Translations under genes and position numbers: made by a program
Part shown: piece after piece, positions 1 through 16,336 of the stretch
Layout: each line of letters starts with the position of its first letter
Position numbering within the stretch: position 1 is the stretch's first letter
Source: Puniceicoccaceae bacterium
GTDB lineage: Bacteria; Verrucomicrobiota; Verrucomicrobiia; Opitutales; Oceanipulchritudinaceae
NCBI GenBank assembly: GCA_040830445.1
Contig: JBFOLZ010000051.1
Coordinates: 5,933-69,932 of the forward strand
Direction: 5' to 3'
DNA: 64,000 nucleotides
The notes under the pieces: model-generated
Database searches by the model: none
What the model saw: the letters and a program-made list of their open reading frames with translations, nothing else
What the model was told of the DNA's origin: nothing

Positions 1-770
1 ACTTCGACAACTGCTGTGCCGGCATTCCCACCCCGGATCCTCTCGGCCTCAATATCGGGAATGAGCTGCCGGACATTTTCCTGAGCGGCCGGGAGCACAA
101 CATTTTCAGCTTGGCCAATACCGGCCGCGGCAAACGCACCACCGGGGAAGGCATGAAGGAGGCCATTGCCAAGGGGGACTTCTCCATGAGCGAGAATGCC
201 AATTTCCTGCAACACACACTGATGAATGCGCTCGTCACGGAGAGCAATGTCCTCAAGCGCCTCCGGGGCTACCAACCCATGGCCGCCTACCCGGCCAATG
301 CGCTGGGACGCAACCTCCGTGATGTTGCGGCCCTGATCGCTTCCGGACAGGAAACCCGGGTCTATTTTGTCTCCCTGGGCGGCTTTGACACCCACGCCAA
401 CCAGCTTTTCCGGCACCGGCAACTGATGGAGCAGCTCTCCTCCGCGATGGCCGCCTTCCAGGCAGACCTTGCCGCCCACAAGCTGGATGACCAGGTCCTC
501 ACGATGACCTTCTCGGAGTTTGGCCGCCGGCCGAGCGAAAACGTCTCCGGCGGGACCGACCACGGGACAGCCGCCCCGCTCTTTGTCATGGGCAGCAAGC
601 TCAAGGGCTCCCTCTTTGGCCAGGCGCCTGACCTGCAGGTGGCAAAGAACAAGGACCTCCCCTTCTCGACCGATTTCCGCTCCGTCTACAGCACGATCAT
701 TGAGCGGTGGTTCGAGACGGACCCCACACGCGTTCTGGAGAAAAAGCACCCGCTCATCGATTTCATTTGA
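1..770 (+). CDS. DUF1501 domain protein (5'-truncated by window edge)
   Basis: Frame is open from base 3 (FDNCCAGIPTPD...). Family-typical motifs VSLGGFDTHANQ, FSEFGRR..EN.SGGTDHG and DFRSVY. Confidence 0.85.
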   Translation, partial: FDNCCAGIPTPDPLGLNIGNELPDIFLSGREHNIFSLANTGRGKRTTGEGMKEAIAKGDFSMSENANFLQHTLMNALVTESNVLKRLRGYQPMAAYPANALGRNLRDVAALIASGQETRVYFVSLGGFDTHANQLFRHRQLMEQLSSAMAAFQADLAAHKLDDQVLTMTFSEFGRRPSENVSGGTDHGTAAPLFVMGSKLKGSLFGQAPDLQVAKNKDLPFSTDFRSVYSTIIERWFETDPTRVLEKKHPLIDFI

Positions 771-881: not shown

Positions 882-2312
882 TTAGACCTTGCCCCGTCGC
901 TCCTCCAGTTCGGCCCGGATCTCCAGTGCCTTGGCCTCGGTTATCGGGTACTTGGCCAGGATCCAGATCGCCAGCGCGGACGTTATCATCGGGACAACGA
1001 TATCAAACACACGCATCATCAGGAGCGTGTTCTCCGACTGGGCCGGCAATTGTTCATCAAATCCGGTGTAATTCAAAAGAACACCCCCGAGCGAATAGGC
1101 CAGGGCTATACCTAATTTGACAACCCACCAAAAAATGGATCCAAACATGCCCTCCCGGCGATGACCCGTCTTCAGTTCATCAAGGTCGCATACGTCCGCC
1201 ACCATGGAGTTCATGAGGGTAAAAAGGCATCCCAGCCCGCAGGCGATGAGCGGCGTGGAAAGGAGGATGAGCCATGGCTGGGCCGGGCTGTAGAGGAGCC
1301 ACTTGGATGCATAGCCAAGGATCGAGAACCCAACCGCCAGGTAGAAGGTTGTCTTCTTGCCAATCCGGCTCGACAGCATCGTCACCAGCGGGATCACCAC
1401 CATGGTGGCACTGGTCATCAGGAAGCCGTTCCAGAACATCAGCCCGGCACCGGCATCCCGATCCCCCCCGTAGACGTAGAAGATCATCACATAGGAGGAA
1501 AAGGAGGAGACCATCATGAAGCCGTTGAAGACAAGGAAGGTCGCCATGCAAAGCTTCAGGAAGGGACCAAAACGGATCGTGGCCGCAAAGCCCTTCAAGA
1601 AGGACATGAAATGCTCCGACAGGCCGGACAACATCGACTGCTCGGCGTCGGCGACCGATTTCATCCGTTCACGACAAAGAAGAGCCGGAATGATCCCGGC
1701 AAAGACGGCGAACACCCCGATGAAAATAGCTAGCTTACGGGCCCCGGTTACCGAATCCGGGGCAAACGATTCCCATTCCATCAACCAGTAGAAGCCCGGG
1801 GCCAGCAGCCAAGGCACCTGGCCGAGGAAATAGGTCACCCCCATCAGCCGGGTCCGCTCATTGCTGTCCGGCGTCATTTCATAGCCGAAGGCGACCCAGG
1901 GCGTGGCAAAGACCGTGTAGGCCAGATAGAAAATGATCGACCCGATCAGGAAGTACCAGAAGTAAAATGACTCGCTGTAGCCTGCCGGCAGCTGCCAGAG
2001 GAGAGCAAACAGGATACCCGCGGTAATGGCCCCCAGGAATATGTAGGGCCGGCGACGTCCCCAGCGGCTCTGGGTGTGGTCGGAGATGTAACCCATGAGC
2101 GGGTCGGTGAAGGCATCTGTCAGGCGGGGCAAGGCCATCAGGAGCCCGACTAGGGCGGGATTCATGCCCAGTCCCAGGTTGAGGACAATCGCCATCATCG
2201 GGATGGCCGCCCCTAGAAGATTGTTTACCAGTGCACCGACACCGTAGGCGATGCGCTGGGGTATCGGGATGCGGTCCTCGGGAGCCGTCCGGTGGTGCGG
2301 GGAATCACTCAT
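882..2312 (-). CDS. MFS sugar:cation symporter (GPH/MelB-like, MFS_2)
   Basis: 476 aa with ~12 hydrophobic segments and motifs DAFTDPLMGYISD.T.SRWGRRRPY and ERTRL. Confidence 0.9.
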   Translation of the reverse strand: MSDSPHHRTAPEDRIPIPQRIAYGVGALVNNLLGAAIPMMAIVLNLGLGMNPALVGLLMALPRLTDAFTDPLMGYISDHTQSRWGRRRPYIFLGAITAGILFALLWQLPAGYSESFYFWYFLIGSIIFYLAYTVFATPWVAFGYEMTPDSNERTRLMGVTYFLGQVPWLLAPGFYWLMEWESFAPDSVTGARKLAIFIGVFAVFAGIIPALLCRERMKSVADAEQSMLSGLSEHFMSFLKGFAATIRFGPFLKLCMATFLVFNGFMMVSSFSSYVMIFYVYGGDRDAGAGLMFWNGFLMTSATMVVIPLVTMLSSRIGKKTTFYLAVGFSILGYASKWLLYSPAQPWLILLSTPLIACGLGCLFTLMNSMVADVCDLDELKTGHRREGMFGSIFWWVVKLGIALAYSLGGVLLNYTGFDEQLPAQSENTLLMMRVFDIVVPMITSALAIWILAKYPITEAKALEIRAELEERRGKV

Positions 2313-2322
2313 TCAATTGTCC

Positions 2323-4062
2323 TCAGGAATCGCCGGGAATGTAGACCCATCCACCGCCTGCATCAACATATTCCTGGGGAAGGAAAATCCACTTGTTGAG
2401 ACTGTAGCTCCAGACCCAGGGATCATTGGAGACGAAAAGCCAGCCCATCCAGCCCCCCGTATCGACATTGCCGTCAGTATTGGGCCAACCGGCCCAACTC
2501 ATTTCCTCGTTCAAGGTTGTTTCCAAGCCGGTAAACGTGATTGTCGCAGTCTCGGTTTGCGGTCCCTTGATAAGCAAACCCGATTGCAAGACATTAAAGG
2601 TAGCCTCCCCGAGGGTTGTCTCCAATTCAAAAGCGTTCACTTCGGAACCAATCGGGATTGAGACCGTTCCCTCCATTGGTTGGAAGGCATTGTCGAGGAC
2701 ACGGATGAAGGCTTCAATGACAAATCCTGCACTACTCGCCAGAGCCCCTGCCTGACCCCGGAACCGGATGACGTCCCCGGGCAATAGCTCAATGACCTTC
2801 GGGCTCCATTCCTGGTAGAGAAGATGCTCCGCTTTTGCGGCGTCACCATCTGTATAATTGTCAAAGGTCAGAATTCCGTCATCCAAAAGGGTGACATAGT
2901 CGAAAATCCCGTAGCTGCCACCCCATGAACCCTTGGCTGCCCCGCCCCATCCACCAGAGCTGTTGAGCCGGTTGGTATGGATAATCCAGGGTTCGTCCCC
3001 GAATGTAAAGTCGTTGTTGATCATCAGGATACTGGCATTGGAGCCCGGATAGGAGCCACTCAGGAGTGGATAGGTACCCGCCTCGATTTCATCAAAGTCG
3101 CTGTATCCATCCCCGTCGGTATCGACTTTGAGGATGTTTGTCCCGATGACGTGCTCCTCCAAGTCGGTCAGCCCGTCGCCGTCGTCATCCGGATCCGTTT
3201 CGTTCGGGTCCATGTCGTTATCTGTATCCAACGGAACTGTGTCCCCCAGGTTGTAGACGCGGACGTAATCAACCTCCATCCGGACCGGCCAGATGTCCGG
3301 ATCGATCCCCTTCTGGCCACCCCAGAATCCCCCAACCGCAATATTCAGGATGAGGTGGAAGGGCTCATCAAAGGGCCAAGCCTCCCAGCCGGTTCCCGGG
3401 TTCGGGGCAGAGAAATATTCACTGTCATCTATCAGGAAGCGGATTTGCTCAGGTGACCATTCAATCGCGTATACATGAAAGGCCGTGTCTACATCAGCAA
3501 TGGTGGTCGTTCCCGTAACCTGGGTGCCCGAGATCCAGTTATTGGCCAGGGAATGCAGGCTTCCGTGGATCCTGCCCATGTCATAACCCACATGTTCCAT
3601 GATATCGATCTCCCCGCTCCTCGGCCAGATACCGTACGCATTGCCCGTCGGCAGCATCCAGATCGCCGGCCATGTTCCCCGCCCTGCCGGCAGCTTTGCC
3701 TTTACTTCTATCCGCCCGTAAAGCCAGTCACCCTGCCCCTTCGATAATAGCCGGGCCGATGTGTAGTCCGCTTCCGGGCTTCGCGTCGGCCAAGGCTCCT
3801 TGTGCGCCTCGATGATCAGCAAGCCGCCTTCCACCCGCGCGTTTTCCAATCGCCCGTCCGTGTAGTATTGCTCCTCGTTGTTGCCCCAGCCGCCGCCGCC
3901 CGTGTCATAAATCCACTTGCTCGCATCCGGCAGCCCATCCGGAGTCGGATCAAATTCATCCGACCAGATCAGCTCAGCCTGCCCCAGCAGGCCCGCAATA
4001 CTCATTCCATAAGCCAGACAGGCGGCAGCCCATGCTCGCTTCTTCGCTGTTTTTCCATTCAT
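2323..4062 (-). CDS. Secreted GH16 beta-1,3-glucanase (laminarinase-like) with Ca-binding DxDxDG repeats and a Trp-rich C-terminal domain
   Basis: Signal peptide, LIWSDEF, WPAIWML and catalytic EIDIMEH. TSP3-like repeats DTDNDMDPNETDPDDDGDG and DTDGDGYSD. Confidence 0.92.
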   Translation of the reverse strand: MNGKTAKKRAWAAACLAYGMSIAGLLGQAELIWSDEFDPTPDGLPDASKWIYDTGGGGWGNNEEQYYTDGRLENARVEGGLLIIEAHKEPWPTRSPEADYTSARLLSKGQGDWLYGRIEVKAKLPAGRGTWPAIWMLPTGNAYGIWPRSGEIDIMEHVGYDMGRIHGSLHSLANNWISGTQVTGTTTIADVDTAFHVYAIEWSPEQIRFLIDDSEYFSAPNPGTGWEAWPFDEPFHLILNIAVGGFWGGQKGIDPDIWPVRMEVDYVRVYNLGDTVPLDTDNDMDPNETDPDDDGDGLTDLEEHVIGTNILKVDTDGDGYSDFDEIEAGTYPLLSGSYPGSNASILMINNDFTFGDEPWIIHTNRLNSSGGWGGAAKGSWGGSYGIFDYVTLLDDGILTFDNYTDGDAAKAEHLLYQEWSPKVIELLPGDVIRFRGQAGALASSAGFVIEAFIRVLDNAFQPMEGTVSIPIGSEVNAFELETTLGEATFNVLQSGLLIKGPQTETATITFTGLETTLNEEMSWAGWPNTDGNVDTGGWMGWLFVSNDPWVWSYSLNKWIFLPQEYVDAGGGWVYIPGDS

Positions 4063-4211
4063 CTCGGGAGTTATCAGGGTTTCTCTTGAAGGGTAATTTC
4101 AATTTGCAGCATATCCTGCATATTAATGCATTATTTTTTGCTTCCCCTGACCAGCTTGTCAAGCCATAGTGCATCGAATACACCCTTATTAATCAATTAT
4201 CATCCCACACC

Positions 4212-5762
4212 ATGATGCGCCTACCTCTGCAAAAAGTCCTATTCCTGATGCTTCCCCTCAGCCTTCCCATCTCCATCCCCACGACCTCCGCCCATCCGGA
4301 AACGGATACTCTCCGGATATACCAGACCAGCCGCGAGGGCGACCGGCTGAAGGAGATTGAACCCGCCCCGGCGAGCGGCGAAGTTACCCGCCAGCTGGTA
4401 TTGGACCCATCGAAACGATTCCAGACGTTGATTGGGATCGGTGGCTCCTTTACCGAGTCGAGCGCACATGTGCTTTCGGAATTGTCCCCGGATGCCCGCA
4501 CGAAGGTGATGGAGGCGTATTTTTCACCAACCGGGGCCCATATTTCCCTGACCCGGACCCATATCGCCAGCTGCGACTTTTCGGTGCGCAACTACACCTT
4601 TGCCCCCGTTCCGGGTGATACGGAGCTGGAGCACTTCAGCATTGAGCCCGACCGGACCTACCTCCTGCCGATGATCCAGCAGGCCCGGGATGTCGAGGGG
4701 TCGGACTTCAAGATCCTGGCCTCCCCGTGGACCGCACCCCCATGGATGAAGACCAATGGAACATGGAATGGCGGGGAGGTGAAGCCGGAGTTCTACGGGG
4801 CTTTCGCCCGGTACATCGTCAAGTACATCGAAGCCTACGCGGAGGAGGGGATTCCCATCTGGGCCTTGACGCCGATCAACGAGCCACTAGGCAACGATTC
4901 CAACTGGGAAAGCACCCACTTCAGCCCGGAACAGATGCGCGACTTCATTGCCGGGCACCTTGGTCCCGCCTTGCGTGACGCCGGTCTGGAGGTTCCCCTG
5001 TGGATATATGACCAGAACCGCGAGGACATCATGCTCGATTGGGCCGATGCCATTCTCGGTGATGAGGAAGCCGCCGCCTTTGTTGAAGGCCTGGCGGTCC
5101 ACTGGTACCAGAGCACGGTTGACGTCGGGGGTGAGATGCTCGATGCCGTTTCGGCTAAATATCCAGATGCCCGCATCCTCCATTCCGAAGGCTGTATCGA
5201 CTCCATCGGGAACGACGAGCCCATTGGCGCCTGGCTTGAAGACGATTGGTACTGGCGTCCGGAGGCAACGGACTGGGGCATGTTCTGGGCCAAGGAGGAA
5301 AACAAGCACCATCACCCACCCTACCGCGCCTTTTACCGCTACACTCGCGACCTCATCGGCGGACTCAACCATAACCTCGTTGGCTGGATTGACTGGAACA
5401 TGGTCCTCAATACCCGAGGCGGACCCAATCATGCCAACAACTTCTGCCTCGCACCCGTACTGGTCGATTCCGGCAAGGACCACGCCTATTTCACTCCCCT
5501 CTTCTACTCCATTGCCCACTTCAGCAAGTTCATCCGCCCCGAAGCCGTTCGTATCGGCCTCTCCGGCCATGACGATACCTTCATGGCCACCGCCTTTTGC
5601 AACCCGGATGGAACCATTGCCATCGCCGTCTTTAACCTTGGCGAAGAGGACCTTTCCTACACCCTAACCACACCCGGCAAGACGTACTCCCTCGGCATTC
5701 CCGGTCAGGCCCTCCAGACTCTCGTGCTGCAAAATGTCGCCCCTGCGGGGCTCGGGGATTGA
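4212..5762 (+). CDS. GH30 glycoside hydrolase (glucosylceramidase-like, probable beta-1,6-glucosidase/glucanase)
   Basis: Signal peptide, GIGGSFTES, RTHIASCDFS, ASPWTAPPWMKTN, acid/base NEP, nucleophile region HSEGC and WIDWNMVL...GGPNH. Confidence 0.92.
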   Translation: MMRLPLQKVLFLMLPLSLPISIPTTSAHPETDTLRIYQTSREGDRLKEIEPAPASGEVTRQLVLDPSKRFQTLIGIGGSFTESSAHVLSELSPDARTKVMEAYFSPTGAHISLTRTHIASCDFSVRNYTFAPVPGDTELEHFSIEPDRTYLLPMIQQARDVEGSDFKILASPWTAPPWMKTNGTWNGGEVKPEFYGAFARYIVKYIEAYAEEGIPIWALTPINEPLGNDSNWESTHFSPEQMRDFIAGHLGPALRDAGLEVPLWIYDQNREDIMLDWADAILGDEEAAAFVEGLAVHWYQSTVDVGGEMLDAVSAKYPDARILHSEGCIDSIGNDEPIGAWLEDDWYWRPEATDWGMFWAKEENKHHHPPYRAFYRYTRDLIGGLNHNLVGWIDWNMVLNTRGGPNHANNFCLAPVLVDSGKDHAYFTPLFYSIAHFSKFIRPEAVRIGLSGHDDTFMATAFCNPDGTIAIAVFNLGEEDLSYTLTTPGKTYSLGIPGQALQTLVLQNVAPAGLGD

Positions 5763-5850: not shown

Positions 5851-5990
5851 GCTCGTCGCGATGTATTCGTTCCCGCCATCCGGGCTTTGCGATTCGGCCT
5901 CTTCGAGGCTCGTCGCGATGTATTCGTTCCCGCAATCCGGGTTTTGCGATTCGACCTCTTCGAGGCCTGTTGCGATGTATTCGTTCCCGC
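5823..5990. repeat. 57-bp tandem repeat x3 (amplified end of a family A element)
   Basis: Units start at 5823, 5880 and 5937: CCGGGCTTTGCGATTCGGCCTCTTCGAGGCTCGTCGCGATGTATTCGTTCCCGCCAT. The third copy is diverged and there are no unique spacers. Confidence 0.93.
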
Positions 5991-15248: not shown

Positions 15249-16259
15249 CTAGAAATTCGGGATGTAGACCCAGCTGCCACTGGGGCTAACCCAGCCTTCC
15301 TGGACGTAAATGTACTTATCCAAAGACAGGTTATAAAGCCAGGGAGCATCGTCGATGATCATCCAGCCAAGCCAGGGGCTTGTATCAATATACTTGGATG
15401 GCGGGCTGTCGACAATTGGGTAGCCGGCCCAGTCGGTCGGCTCAAAAGGCGCATTACCCTCCTGGTAGATATTCAACTCAACTTCATACCCGGTGACCGT
15501 TGCGATCAGGGCATCCTGCAGGGTCGTGGCCTCGCGGGCGGTGTCCACCCGCGCGAAAAAGATATTCACGACATAGTAATCGGTGGCATTGAAGGTGCCT
15601 ACCGGCAGGGTGATTGAAGTCTCCGTCGGCAGAAGCCCAAAGGCGCCCTCCTGGGTGTCATTCTCGGAATCGTAAACCGGGTATCCGCCAAATTCATTGA
15701 AGCCATATATCTCGATATTGATGACACCGGCATAACCGAGATTCGGCCCGGCTCCCTGGCCCTCGGTGAATTCCGTCCACTCGATGGTAAGTGGCTGGTT
15801 GTGATTGAAAGACTGCAAGGCCTCAAAGTTGGTCACTTTCAGGGGTGTGAGCGGATTGTACGCGCCCATGACCAGCAGCTCATTCCAGGTATCGGAGATC
15901 GCACCGATCCCCGCGATGGTGTAGGTGCCCGGCATGAAGGCAGTCGTCATCTCTTCAGCAGTGGCGTAGGAACCAAAAATCTCCCAGAGGTCCTCGTCGA
16001 ACGGAATATCCGTTGGCGTAGGATAGGAGGGACCGGTGACCGTCAGGCTGGAGAGCGTGTCCTGGCCCTCGACCGACAGGTAGCTGGAATAGTTCCCGCC
16101 AAATTCGAAATTGGTATGGTCCCCGAAACCAACAAGGGTGTCCGGTCCGGTTTGCTTGTTGAACTGGGTATACTCGCCAACAATAACTTCAATCTGTGCA
16201 ACGCTCCACAGCGGTACAAGGCCCGCCACCAACAAGAGAAGAGATCGGTATCTGGTCAT
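15249..16259 (-). CDS. Secreted acidic protein of unknown function with a Trp-rich C-terminal domain
   Basis: Signal peptide MTRYRSLLLLVAGLVPLWSVA. The C-terminal 60 aa match the GH16 C-terminus. Confidence 0.75.
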   Translation of the reverse strand: MTRYRSLLLLVAGLVPLWSVAQIEVIVGEYTQFNKQTGPDTLVGFGDHTNFEFGGNYSSYLSVEGQDTLSSLTVTGPSYPTPTDIPFDEDLWEIFGSYATAEEMTTAFMPGTYTIAGIGAISDTWNELLVMGAYNPLTPLKVTNFEALQSFNHNQPLTIEWTEFTEGQGAGPNLGYAGVINIEIYGFNEFGGYPVYDSENDTQEGAFGLLPTETSITLPVGTFNATDYYVVNIFFARVDTAREATTLQDALIATVTGYEVELNIYQEGNAPFEPTDWAGYPIVDSPPSKYIDTSPWLGWMIIDDAPWLYNLSLDKYIYVQEGWVSPSGSWVYIPNF

Positions 16260-16336
16260 GTACGGGCAGTAAGGGGAATACAGAGCGCCCGGCAAGCCTC
16301 AATTGGTAAAAGGTCGGTTAAAAGCAAAGGGCAGGG

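Follow-up and report, generated by a model that had tools for sequence, protein, structure and literature searches.

The 64,000-nucleotide stretch of DNA analysed here, hereafter the window, covers positions 5,933 to 69,932 of contig JBFOLZ010000051.1 (contig C51) in the assembly of a Puniceicoccaceae bacterium (3.07 Mb, 145 contigs, 92.5% complete). It holds just two genes, encoding a GH16 glycoside hydrolase and a secreted protein of 336 residues, whose products end in a common tryptophan-rich tail. This tail is a new, autonomous and family-restricted domain that is mostly C-terminal, is found on diverse Sec-exported cargo and is exchangeable with PEP-CTERM, a known cell-surface sorting signal. 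The GH16 gene (2323-4062, minus strand) codes for 579 residues, consisting of a Sec leader (approximately residues 1-28), a catalytic domain (approximately residues 30-272, window positions ~3247-3975; Pfam PF00722, E = 2.8e-22, EglC-like in NCBIfam), acidic repeats of the TSP3 type (approximately residues 273-342, TSP3_bac), an uncharacterised beta region (approximately residues 343-518), a short linker ending in TLNEEMS, and the tail (2326-2496, minus strand; 57 residues, 523-579). The stop codon follows at 2323-2325, and the envelope of the tail profile stops 3 residues short of it. The second gene (15249-16259, minus strand) starts with an ATG at 16259; the TTG that precedes it, at 16295, is the less likely start and would lengthen the protein by 12 residues. 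Its product is comprised of a Sec leader (residues 1-22), two FN3/Ig-like beta-sandwiches (residues 23-264, assigned from a full-length model and Foldseek), a linker (residues 265-276) and the tail (15252-15431, minus strand; 60 residues, 277-336; stop codon 15249-15251). No Pfam or NCBIfam family matches this protein. A full-length AlphaFold model built from 15 orthologues (predicted local distance difference test, pLDDT, 80.7) consists of the two sandwiches, the linker and the tail; according to Foldseek the sandwiches resemble FN3 pairs and the Vibrio matrix protein RbmA. The tail is kept in all 15 orthologues of the alignment.

Compared by BLASTP over their whole length, the two proteins are similar in the C-terminal region only (E = 2e-14), and a MAFFT alignment of the tails has 24 identical positions in 65 columns (40% identity). 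The likeness is far beyond chance, because a profile hidden Markov model (HMM) derived from both tails matches 35 open reading frames (ORFs) of this genome, the lowest E-value being 1e-37. An earlier sequence-only reading of this DNA had counted 22 identities over about 55 positions by hand and had described a tail shared by unrelated cargo behind Sec-type leaders, with neither a transmembrane segment plus basic end nor a PEP or LPxTG motif. All of this is borne out: the cargo is GH16 with TSP3 repeats in one case and a pair of FN3/Ig-like sandwiches in the other, both proteins have Sec-type leaders, none of the three known signatures is present, and basic residues are scarce.

Within the genome, the HMM was run against all six-frame ORFs and iterated to convergence, which yields 35 ORFs with 38 copies of the domain. 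The last copy stops 0-5 residues before the stop codon in every one of the 35 ORFs; three proteins carry an additional full copy or half copy. The N-termini are nearly all of a Sec type-I-like kind, for example MKTKLFLTALTLVGASLASAQ. Signal-peptide calls were heuristic, and a control with random ORFs was run because the choice of start codon could bias them: 30 of 34 members (~88%) pass the strict heuristic, versus 161 of 600 random ORFs of at least 300 residues (27%; Fisher p = 6e-13). Scanned with Pfam and NCBIfam, the 34 full-length members have no single family in common, and the tail therefore has no model in either collection.

The cargo in front of the tail is varied. It includes GH16 (2 proteins), glycosidases of the BNR/sortilin-type 'F510_1955' (3-4), pectate-lyase folds (2), a sulfatase (1), RCC1 repeats (2), a BspA-type leucine-rich repeat (LRR) protein, HAF repeats, DNRLRE, DUF4465, an esterase of the PHB-depolymerase type, and the carbohydrate-binding modules (CBMs) CBM9 and CBM96, which lie in the cargo part and not in the tail. 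Roughly half of the cargo is carbohydrate-active. A further member (C142:10373-12004, minus strand) is an octaheme cytochrome c of the tetrathionate-reductase family (TIGR04315, E = 1.8e-136); if the tail serves surface display, this Verrucomicrobium would possess a multihaem cytochrome that faces outward. One subtype of the tail, with the pattern W-Y-G-Y-P...D-D-S-G-W (WYGYP...DDSGWVY), lacks the loop of 6-7 residues before the last strand. It prevails in clusters of adjacent genes (C22:45437-55399, C22:6385-11727, C9:724-3938 and C93:4846-9126) that consist of paralogous proteins of ~315 residues and BNR glycosidases of ~855 residues, located beside LacI regulators and TonB-dependent receptors.

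The consensus of the whole domain, drawn from 214 full-length copies, is W-A-G-[YFW]-P-[IV]-x3-G-x-V-[DN]-T-G-x-[WF]-[LM]-G-W-[LIV]-x-V-x3-P-W-[VI]-[WY]-S-x2-L-x2-[WY]-x-Y-L-P-E-x2-V-x3-G-x-W-x-[YF], with W5, T18, G23, Y43, G53 and W55 near-invariant. Aromatic residues make up about 20% of these copies (W 9.2%, Y 6.6%, F 4.1%), lysine and arginine together 3%. An AlphaFold2 model of the GH16 tail, based on the alignment of 35 copies, is all-beta with six or more predicted strands (pLDDT 90.6, predicted TM-score 0.75), and the same strands recur behind the linker in the full-length model of the 336-residue protein. A Foldseek search of the tail model against 350,542 PDB chains returns no fold match (best E 3.6, TM-score at most 0.33), and when all PDB sequences were searched with the profile, no match fell below E = 0.29. 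No Pfam family is matched at E of 1 or less by any of the 35 copies, except for DUF7183 (PF23811) at noise level, which was rejected at 12-13 bits (E ~0.15) against a gathering threshold of 27 bits, with control genomes equally weak; both window tails are likewise without an NCBIfam match. Full-text literature searches (Puniceicoccaceae, Lentimonas, sorting domains of Verrucomicrobia, DUF7183) returned no description of the tail, and in public records the proteins are named 'hypothetical protein' or after their cargo. The tail apparently represents an undescribed domain family and superfamily, with a fold that, judged from the model, would be new.

Half copies deserve a separate remark. The ORF C67:12918-13067 (minus strand), a leaderless frame of 50 codons, starts 16 nt after the stop codon of the tail gene C67:13084-14400 and comprises no more than the second half of the domain. 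Its layout resembles the 'full plus half copy' arrangement of C67:15454-16632, C99:17868-20453, C27:25039-27273 and the library proteins P0170 and P0172, and it is probably either a half copy severed by a stop codon or an extension reached by read-through. An internal duplication of the 58-residue domain, hinted at by such stand-alone half copies, was considered and rejected, as an hhalign comparison of the two halves gives a probability of 2.5%.

Beyond this genome, we searched a library of 1.84 billion representative proteins with the profile and obtained 1,057 clusters at E of 1e-3 or less, of which 635 are at 1e-10 or less. (A contig search with the GH16 protein as query returned mostly homologues of the catalytic domain, and region-restricted searches of a collection of 5.8 billion proteins, limited by its word index, yielded just 2-3 proteins.) In a set of 41 related genomes, the domain is found in 23 of the 24 genomes that belong to the family of the window, with 1-79 matches each (from 1-2 in G020 and G021 to 79 in G014; G024 has none), and in none of the 16 from other families of the same order. 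An even sample of 301 genomes across the phylum gives the same picture: 5 of 5 genomes of the family harbour the domain, and none of 295 genomes from about 59 other families do. NCBI labels the nearest metagenome-assembled genomes (MAGs) as Puniceicoccaceae or Opitutales bacterium.

Among the top 150 library proteins 137 finish in the domain, within 0-6 residues of the stop, and about 65 carry two copies, which in several proteins are parted by a second cargo region. A tandem pair lies internally or near the N-terminus in nine, followed by FN3/purple-acid-phosphatase-N, CBM9-like, RCC1 plus FGE-sulfatase, pectate-lyase or CotH regions. No new signal peptide follows the pair in any of these nine proteins, and the arrangements are hence real architectures rather than fused gene calls. 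There are also proteins that consist only of a signal peptide and two copies, namely P0041 (164 residues), P0054 (159 residues) and P0038 (190 residues). The sequence-only reading had expected an HMM of the two tails to find many C-terminal matches on diverse, signal-peptide-bearing cargo and no counterpart in Pfam or NCBIfam. The 35 ORFs, the 1,057 clusters and the terminal position in 35/35 and 137/150 proteins agree with this; the expected C-terminal position holds throughout this genome, but not for the ~6% of library members with internal or near N-terminal copies.

A second, longer Trp-rich tail of ~75-100 residues occurs in 21 ORFs of this genome, none of which has the short tail. Its core reads GW..s.WfGw....PWiYH..HGW.Y...YP..Y.....W.YY..G; examples are C1:60684-62225, C100:21795-23441 and C85:279-1979, and the nearest such protein (C51:72162-75902) is encoded about 2 kb past the end of the window. 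In 18 of the 21 the longer tail finishes 2-26 residues before the stop codon; near the N-terminus it is found in three proteins, in one of them ahead of fasciclin domains. It has no Pfam name. Aligning the profiles of both tails with hhalign gives a probability of 96% (E = 2.7e-9, score 42.9 over 34 columns), with twenty column-shuffled control profiles scoring at most 16.3; on profile comparison, the longer tail is a remote homologue of the 58-residue tail, and both would form one superfamily. They have in common the core ...[WF][LF]G[WF]...PW[VI][WY].....W[IM]Y, a mostly C-terminal position on secreted proteins, and alternation with PEP-CTERM on DUF4465 proteins. The longer tail differs by an extra hairpin unit, by its length, by an end ~20 residues before the stop, and by a slightly wider taxonomic spread: in the phylum sample it is present in 5 of 5 genomes of the window's family and sporadically in four other families.

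The relation to PEP-CTERM can be followed on individual genes. The genome harbours four exosortases (PF09721 matches over the cut-off) and at least 15 PEP-CTERM proteins, a set separate from the proteins with the Trp-rich tail. One PEP-CTERM gene (C62:38443-39189) is located directly upstream of a Trp-tail gene (C62:39240-40070), and the two are tandem paralogues with 40% identity across the whole cargo (E = 2e-47). Their homology stops at …TPG[SA]Y, after which one runs on as VPEPSTYAVVLGLLAIGFVIRRRRS and the other as DSGIGGNTWAGYPV…. The LTD-type cargo of this pair has no homologue at E of 1e-8 or less in 40 relatives, so that the swap could not be generalised from it, and DUF4465 was taken instead.

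DUF4465 is a single-copy orthologue in 24 of the 41 related genomes, and all its tails start after the same conserved cargo end …[AV]-[IVM]-D-x-L…. The Trp-rich domain follows in 7 genomes, every one belonging to the genus of the window, a PEP-CTERM in 13 (five of the window's genus and three of other families), and the longer Trp-rich tail in the remaining 4. A maximum-likelihood tree of the DUF4465 cargo alone, which leaves out two partial ORFs (G008 and G011b), contains a clade of nine rows of the window's genus with 99/97 support, including the seven Trp-tail orthologues; a PEP-CTERM pair (100/99 support) is nested among these seven. The three tail labels need 6 changes on this tree, although the strongly supported branches alone force fewer.

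GH16 itself adds two further cases. The closest orthologue, L007 (L007:2500-4557, CBFDDG010000001.1), has 68% identity through the middle domain and ends in …TLNEETT plus 16 residues, with no Trp-rich tail encoded downstream in any frame, and in the orthologue L013 the tail stands behind a different middle domain. We note that the MAG of L007 is labelled Phycisphaerae, another phylum, which mis-binning or horizontal transfer could explain. The C62, DUF4465 and GH16 comparisons together indicate, at the level of sequence, that the tail is acquired, lost and swapped at a sharp boundary and that it fills the slot of a signal known to sort proteins to the cell surface.

A role of the tail in substrate targeting was also weighed. 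A CBM that binds an abundant environmental polysaccharide, such as an algal glycan or marine gel, would let the proteins stick to the food particle and not to the cell. The tail has the looks of many CBMs, being a small, aromatic-rich beta module that is appended by a linker and often in tandem, and its genes are found in polysaccharide-utilisation-type loci with the carbohydrate-active half of the cargo. We nevertheless consider such a role decidedly unlikely. Octaheme cytochrome, RCC1, LRR, HAF-repeat, DNRLRE and FN3-pair cargo has no obvious need for a substrate CBM, the same tail is joined to enzymes for chemically different substrates, and its exchange partner is PEP-CTERM, a cell-associated sorting signal, and not a CBM; moreover, neither Pfam CBM families nor, by Foldseek, CBM structures are matched. 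Such a range of cargo is far wider than a substrate-specific module would account for.

We surveyed the genes that lie up to 8 kb from the 35 tail genes. Recurrent neighbours outside the family are sulfatases (15), TonB-dependent receptors (7), LacI regulators (4), hybrid sensor regulators (3) and short-chain dehydrogenases/reductases (SDRs; 3), and no machinery-like family recurs. TonB-dependent receptors directly adjoin a tail gene in 4 of 21 cases, versus 0.55 expected; 12 of 5000 label permutations reach 4, which makes for an optimistic p-value, as clustered tail genes are treated as independent. Genes for PEP-CTERM proteins also adjoin genes for TonB-dependent receptors (C92:9922-10762, C22:17798-25282 and C100:14800-18458), and both tail classes are hence located in receptor-centred loci. 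A small lipoprotein gene downstream of the tail genes was considered and dismissed: a lipobox-like small ORF is present at only 1 of the 35 and looks spurious.

In the window, the GH16 gene is part of a compact laminarin-type locus (882-5762). A sugar symporter of the GPH/MFS_2 type (882-2312, minus strand; Pfam PF13347, E = 1e-63) lies downstream of the GH16 gene with a gap of 10 nt, probably in the same operon. Divergent from GH16 is the gene for a GH30 glycosidase (4212-5762, plus strand; Pfam PF02055, E = 1.7e-79) with a signal peptide, which has no match to the tail HMM; the tail is found only on the endo-acting GH16 of this locus and not on GH30. The start of the window (3-770, plus strand) truncates a DUF1501 (sulfatase-like) protein, of which the C-terminal part is present.

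Could the tail be an export or sorting signal, recognised by a dedicated outer-membrane machinery for translocation or attachment, and perhaps removed or covalently processed, in analogy to the C-terminal domains (CTDs) of the type IX secretion system (T9SS)? Diverse Sec-dependent cargo, placement at the very C-terminus in over 90% of members, where 0-6 residues follow, strict lineage restriction as expected for lineage-specific machinery, and interchange with a true sorting signal all speak for it. We regard this as rather unlikely, since internal and N-terminal copies with hundreds of residues after them, common tandems and domain-only proteins are unexpected for a terminal signal. The gene neighbourhoods, with their sulfatases, TonB-dependent receptors, regulators and SDRs in place of a recurrent machinery-like family, also point away from it, albeit as weak evidence. 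The T9SS tail signal (TIGR04183) has no match in the whole genome. SprA_N (PF14349) gave no match in this 92.5% complete assembly and none in the control genomes. A wider version, in which short and longer tails together are the signal of an undescribed outer-membrane export or attachment pathway of Puniceicoccaceae, a T9SS-CTD counterpart parallel to and interchangeable with PEP-CTERM/exosortase, appears just as improbable to us. The undescribed export pathway put forward by the sequence-only reading thus stays a conjecture, with sulfatases, TonB-dependent receptors and LacI regulators and not machinery as the recurrent neighbours. Its idea of a sorting or anchoring tag survives in part: the PEP-CTERM swap at the same junction agrees with it, while tandem, internal and domain-only forms better fit autonomous binding or tethering.

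The reading we favour, to which we would give about an even chance, is that the tail acts as a non-covalent surface tether or docking module with a common target on the envelope. Its independent, aromatic-rich fold, the linker and the occurrence of tandem, internal, N-terminal and domain-only forms are in keeping with a binding module; the diversity of the cargo and the exchange with PEP-CTERM argue for a target associated with the cell rather than with the substrate. The high rate of signal peptides also speaks for this reading, as do the TonB-dependent receptors, sulfatases and LacI regulators near the tail genes, a setting of uptake at the surface, and the laminarin-type locus with its tail on GH16 alone. 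In this scheme the tail would be an autonomously folding, all-beta module of ~58 residues rich in Trp and Tyr, whose superfamily, so far unnamed, has its centre in the Puniceicoccaceae-type family of the Opitutales. Tail proteins would be exported by Sec, as the heuristic calls suggest, and may then pass to the outside of the cell by a general pathway, for example type II secretion; the genome has three secretins, and a generic outer-membrane route therefore exists. At the surface the tail, joined to its cargo by the linker, would bind non-covalently to a common, lineage-specific envelope target, candidates being the cell's own exopolysaccharide, the glycan of lipopolysaccharide (LPS), or a receptor protein. 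Enzymes, binding proteins and adhesin-like proteins would in this way be retained on the cell surface, in many cases next to TonB-dependent uptake receptors. The tail would occupy the evolutionary slot of PEP-CTERM, as a folded binding domain and not as a cleaved transmembrane signal, and we infer that it determines where the exported proteins end up.

Several points weigh against a tether. The strong C-terminal bias (35/35 and 137/150) is needed by a terminal recognition signal, not by a pure binding module, and the PEP-CTERM swap would suit a sorting role equally well. The acidic composition of the domain and its scarcity of basic residues speak against a simple electrostatic attachment to anionic LPS or sulfated glycans. 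The optimistic permutation value for receptor adjacency and the heuristic nature of the signal-peptide calls have to be counted here as well, and binding by the tether is a prediction from sequence and models.

A sub-variant of the tether is docking in the manner of dockerins, in which the tail would plug into a cohesin-like domain on a surface scaffold or on TonB-dependent receptors and so build multi-enzyme complexes. Its usage closely follows that of dockerins (~60 residues, mostly C-terminal, sometimes doubled or internal, diverse cargo), and tail genes are enriched beside TonB-dependent receptors. We hold this variant to be very doubtful: no candidate receptor or scaffold emerged, and the tail, all-beta in the model and without a Pfam match, has no relation to dockerins in sequence or fold.

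Among the Opitutales, the marine Puniceicoccaceae and others specialise in breaking down the polysaccharides of algae. We know of no account of how these Gram-negative cells hold dozens of surface enzymes and binding proteins without SusD-type lipoproteins or a T9SS. The tail marks ~35 proteins in a genome, with as many as ~79 in relatives and more than 50 when its longer homologue is counted too, and would thereby delineate a large, previously invisible class of the 'surface proteome'. Its exchange with PEP-CTERM on orthologous cargo is a natural experiment on what PEP-CTERM sorting achieves, the outcome of which is, to our knowledge, still poorly understood, and offers a direct handle on the destination of these proteins. 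In practical terms, a new HMM would give at least ~1,000 protein clusters an annotated domain in place of 'hypothetical protein', and a self-folding tether of 58 residues could serve as a display tag.

The kind of job, an appended localisation or anchoring function, is already known from other systems; it is the domain itself that is undescribed. The tail is not a member of the T9SS CTD, PEP-CTERM, LPXTG, dockerin, choline-binding, SLH or CBM families, because a defining feature of each was looked for and is absent. PEP-CTERM/exosortase (TIGR02595; EpsH-type PF09721) coexists with the tail in this genome and occupies the same position on diverse, signal-peptide-bearing cargo of the surface type. 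PEP-CTERM, however, is a motif of ~25 residues with a transmembrane helix and an Arg-rich end that is processed by a membrane protease-like enzyme, whereas the tail is a folded, acidic, all-beta domain of 58 residues with neither PEP motif nor hydrophobic helix, and is also found in tandem and internally. The LPXTG arrangement (LPXTG-like motif, hydrophobic segment and basic tail) is absent from all 38 copies on inspection of the alignment.

The T9SS CTDs of Bacteroidota (Por_Secre_tail, TIGR04183/PF18962; CHU_C, PF13585) are likewise small, beta-rich, lineage-restricted and placed at the extreme C-terminus of unrelated Sec cargo. The tail differs in sequence, to which no match was found, in length (58 versus ~70-100 residues), and in its tandem, internal and domain-only forms; in addition, no CTD structure, with its Ig-like beta-sandwich, is among the PDB matches of Foldseek. 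CBM families (e.g., CBM5/12, CBM9, CBM10 and CBM96) are matched neither by Pfam HMMs nor by structure with Foldseek. Choline-binding repeats (CW_binding_1, PF01473), GW modules and SLH domains (PF00395) are aromatic-rich tethers to envelope polymers, single or in tandem and mostly at one end, and in this they resemble the tail; they bind Gram-positive wall polymers, and unlike them the tail has no detectable repeat between its halves. For PF01473, PF00395, LysM, SH3b and GW, there is no Pfam match at E of 1 or less in the 35 copies, no match to a PDB sequence and no Foldseek match. Dockerins (PF00404) are alpha-helical, consist of duplicated Ca-binding segments, and occur in Gram-positive anaerobes with known cohesin partners, whereas the tail is all-beta, Trp-rich, without a Pfam match to them and from a Gram-negative lineage. 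In usage both are alike: dockerins too are domains of ~60 residues, mostly C-terminal and sometimes doubled or internal, that serve docking rather than catalysis and are appended to dozens of enzymes and non-enzymes of a polysaccharide degrader.

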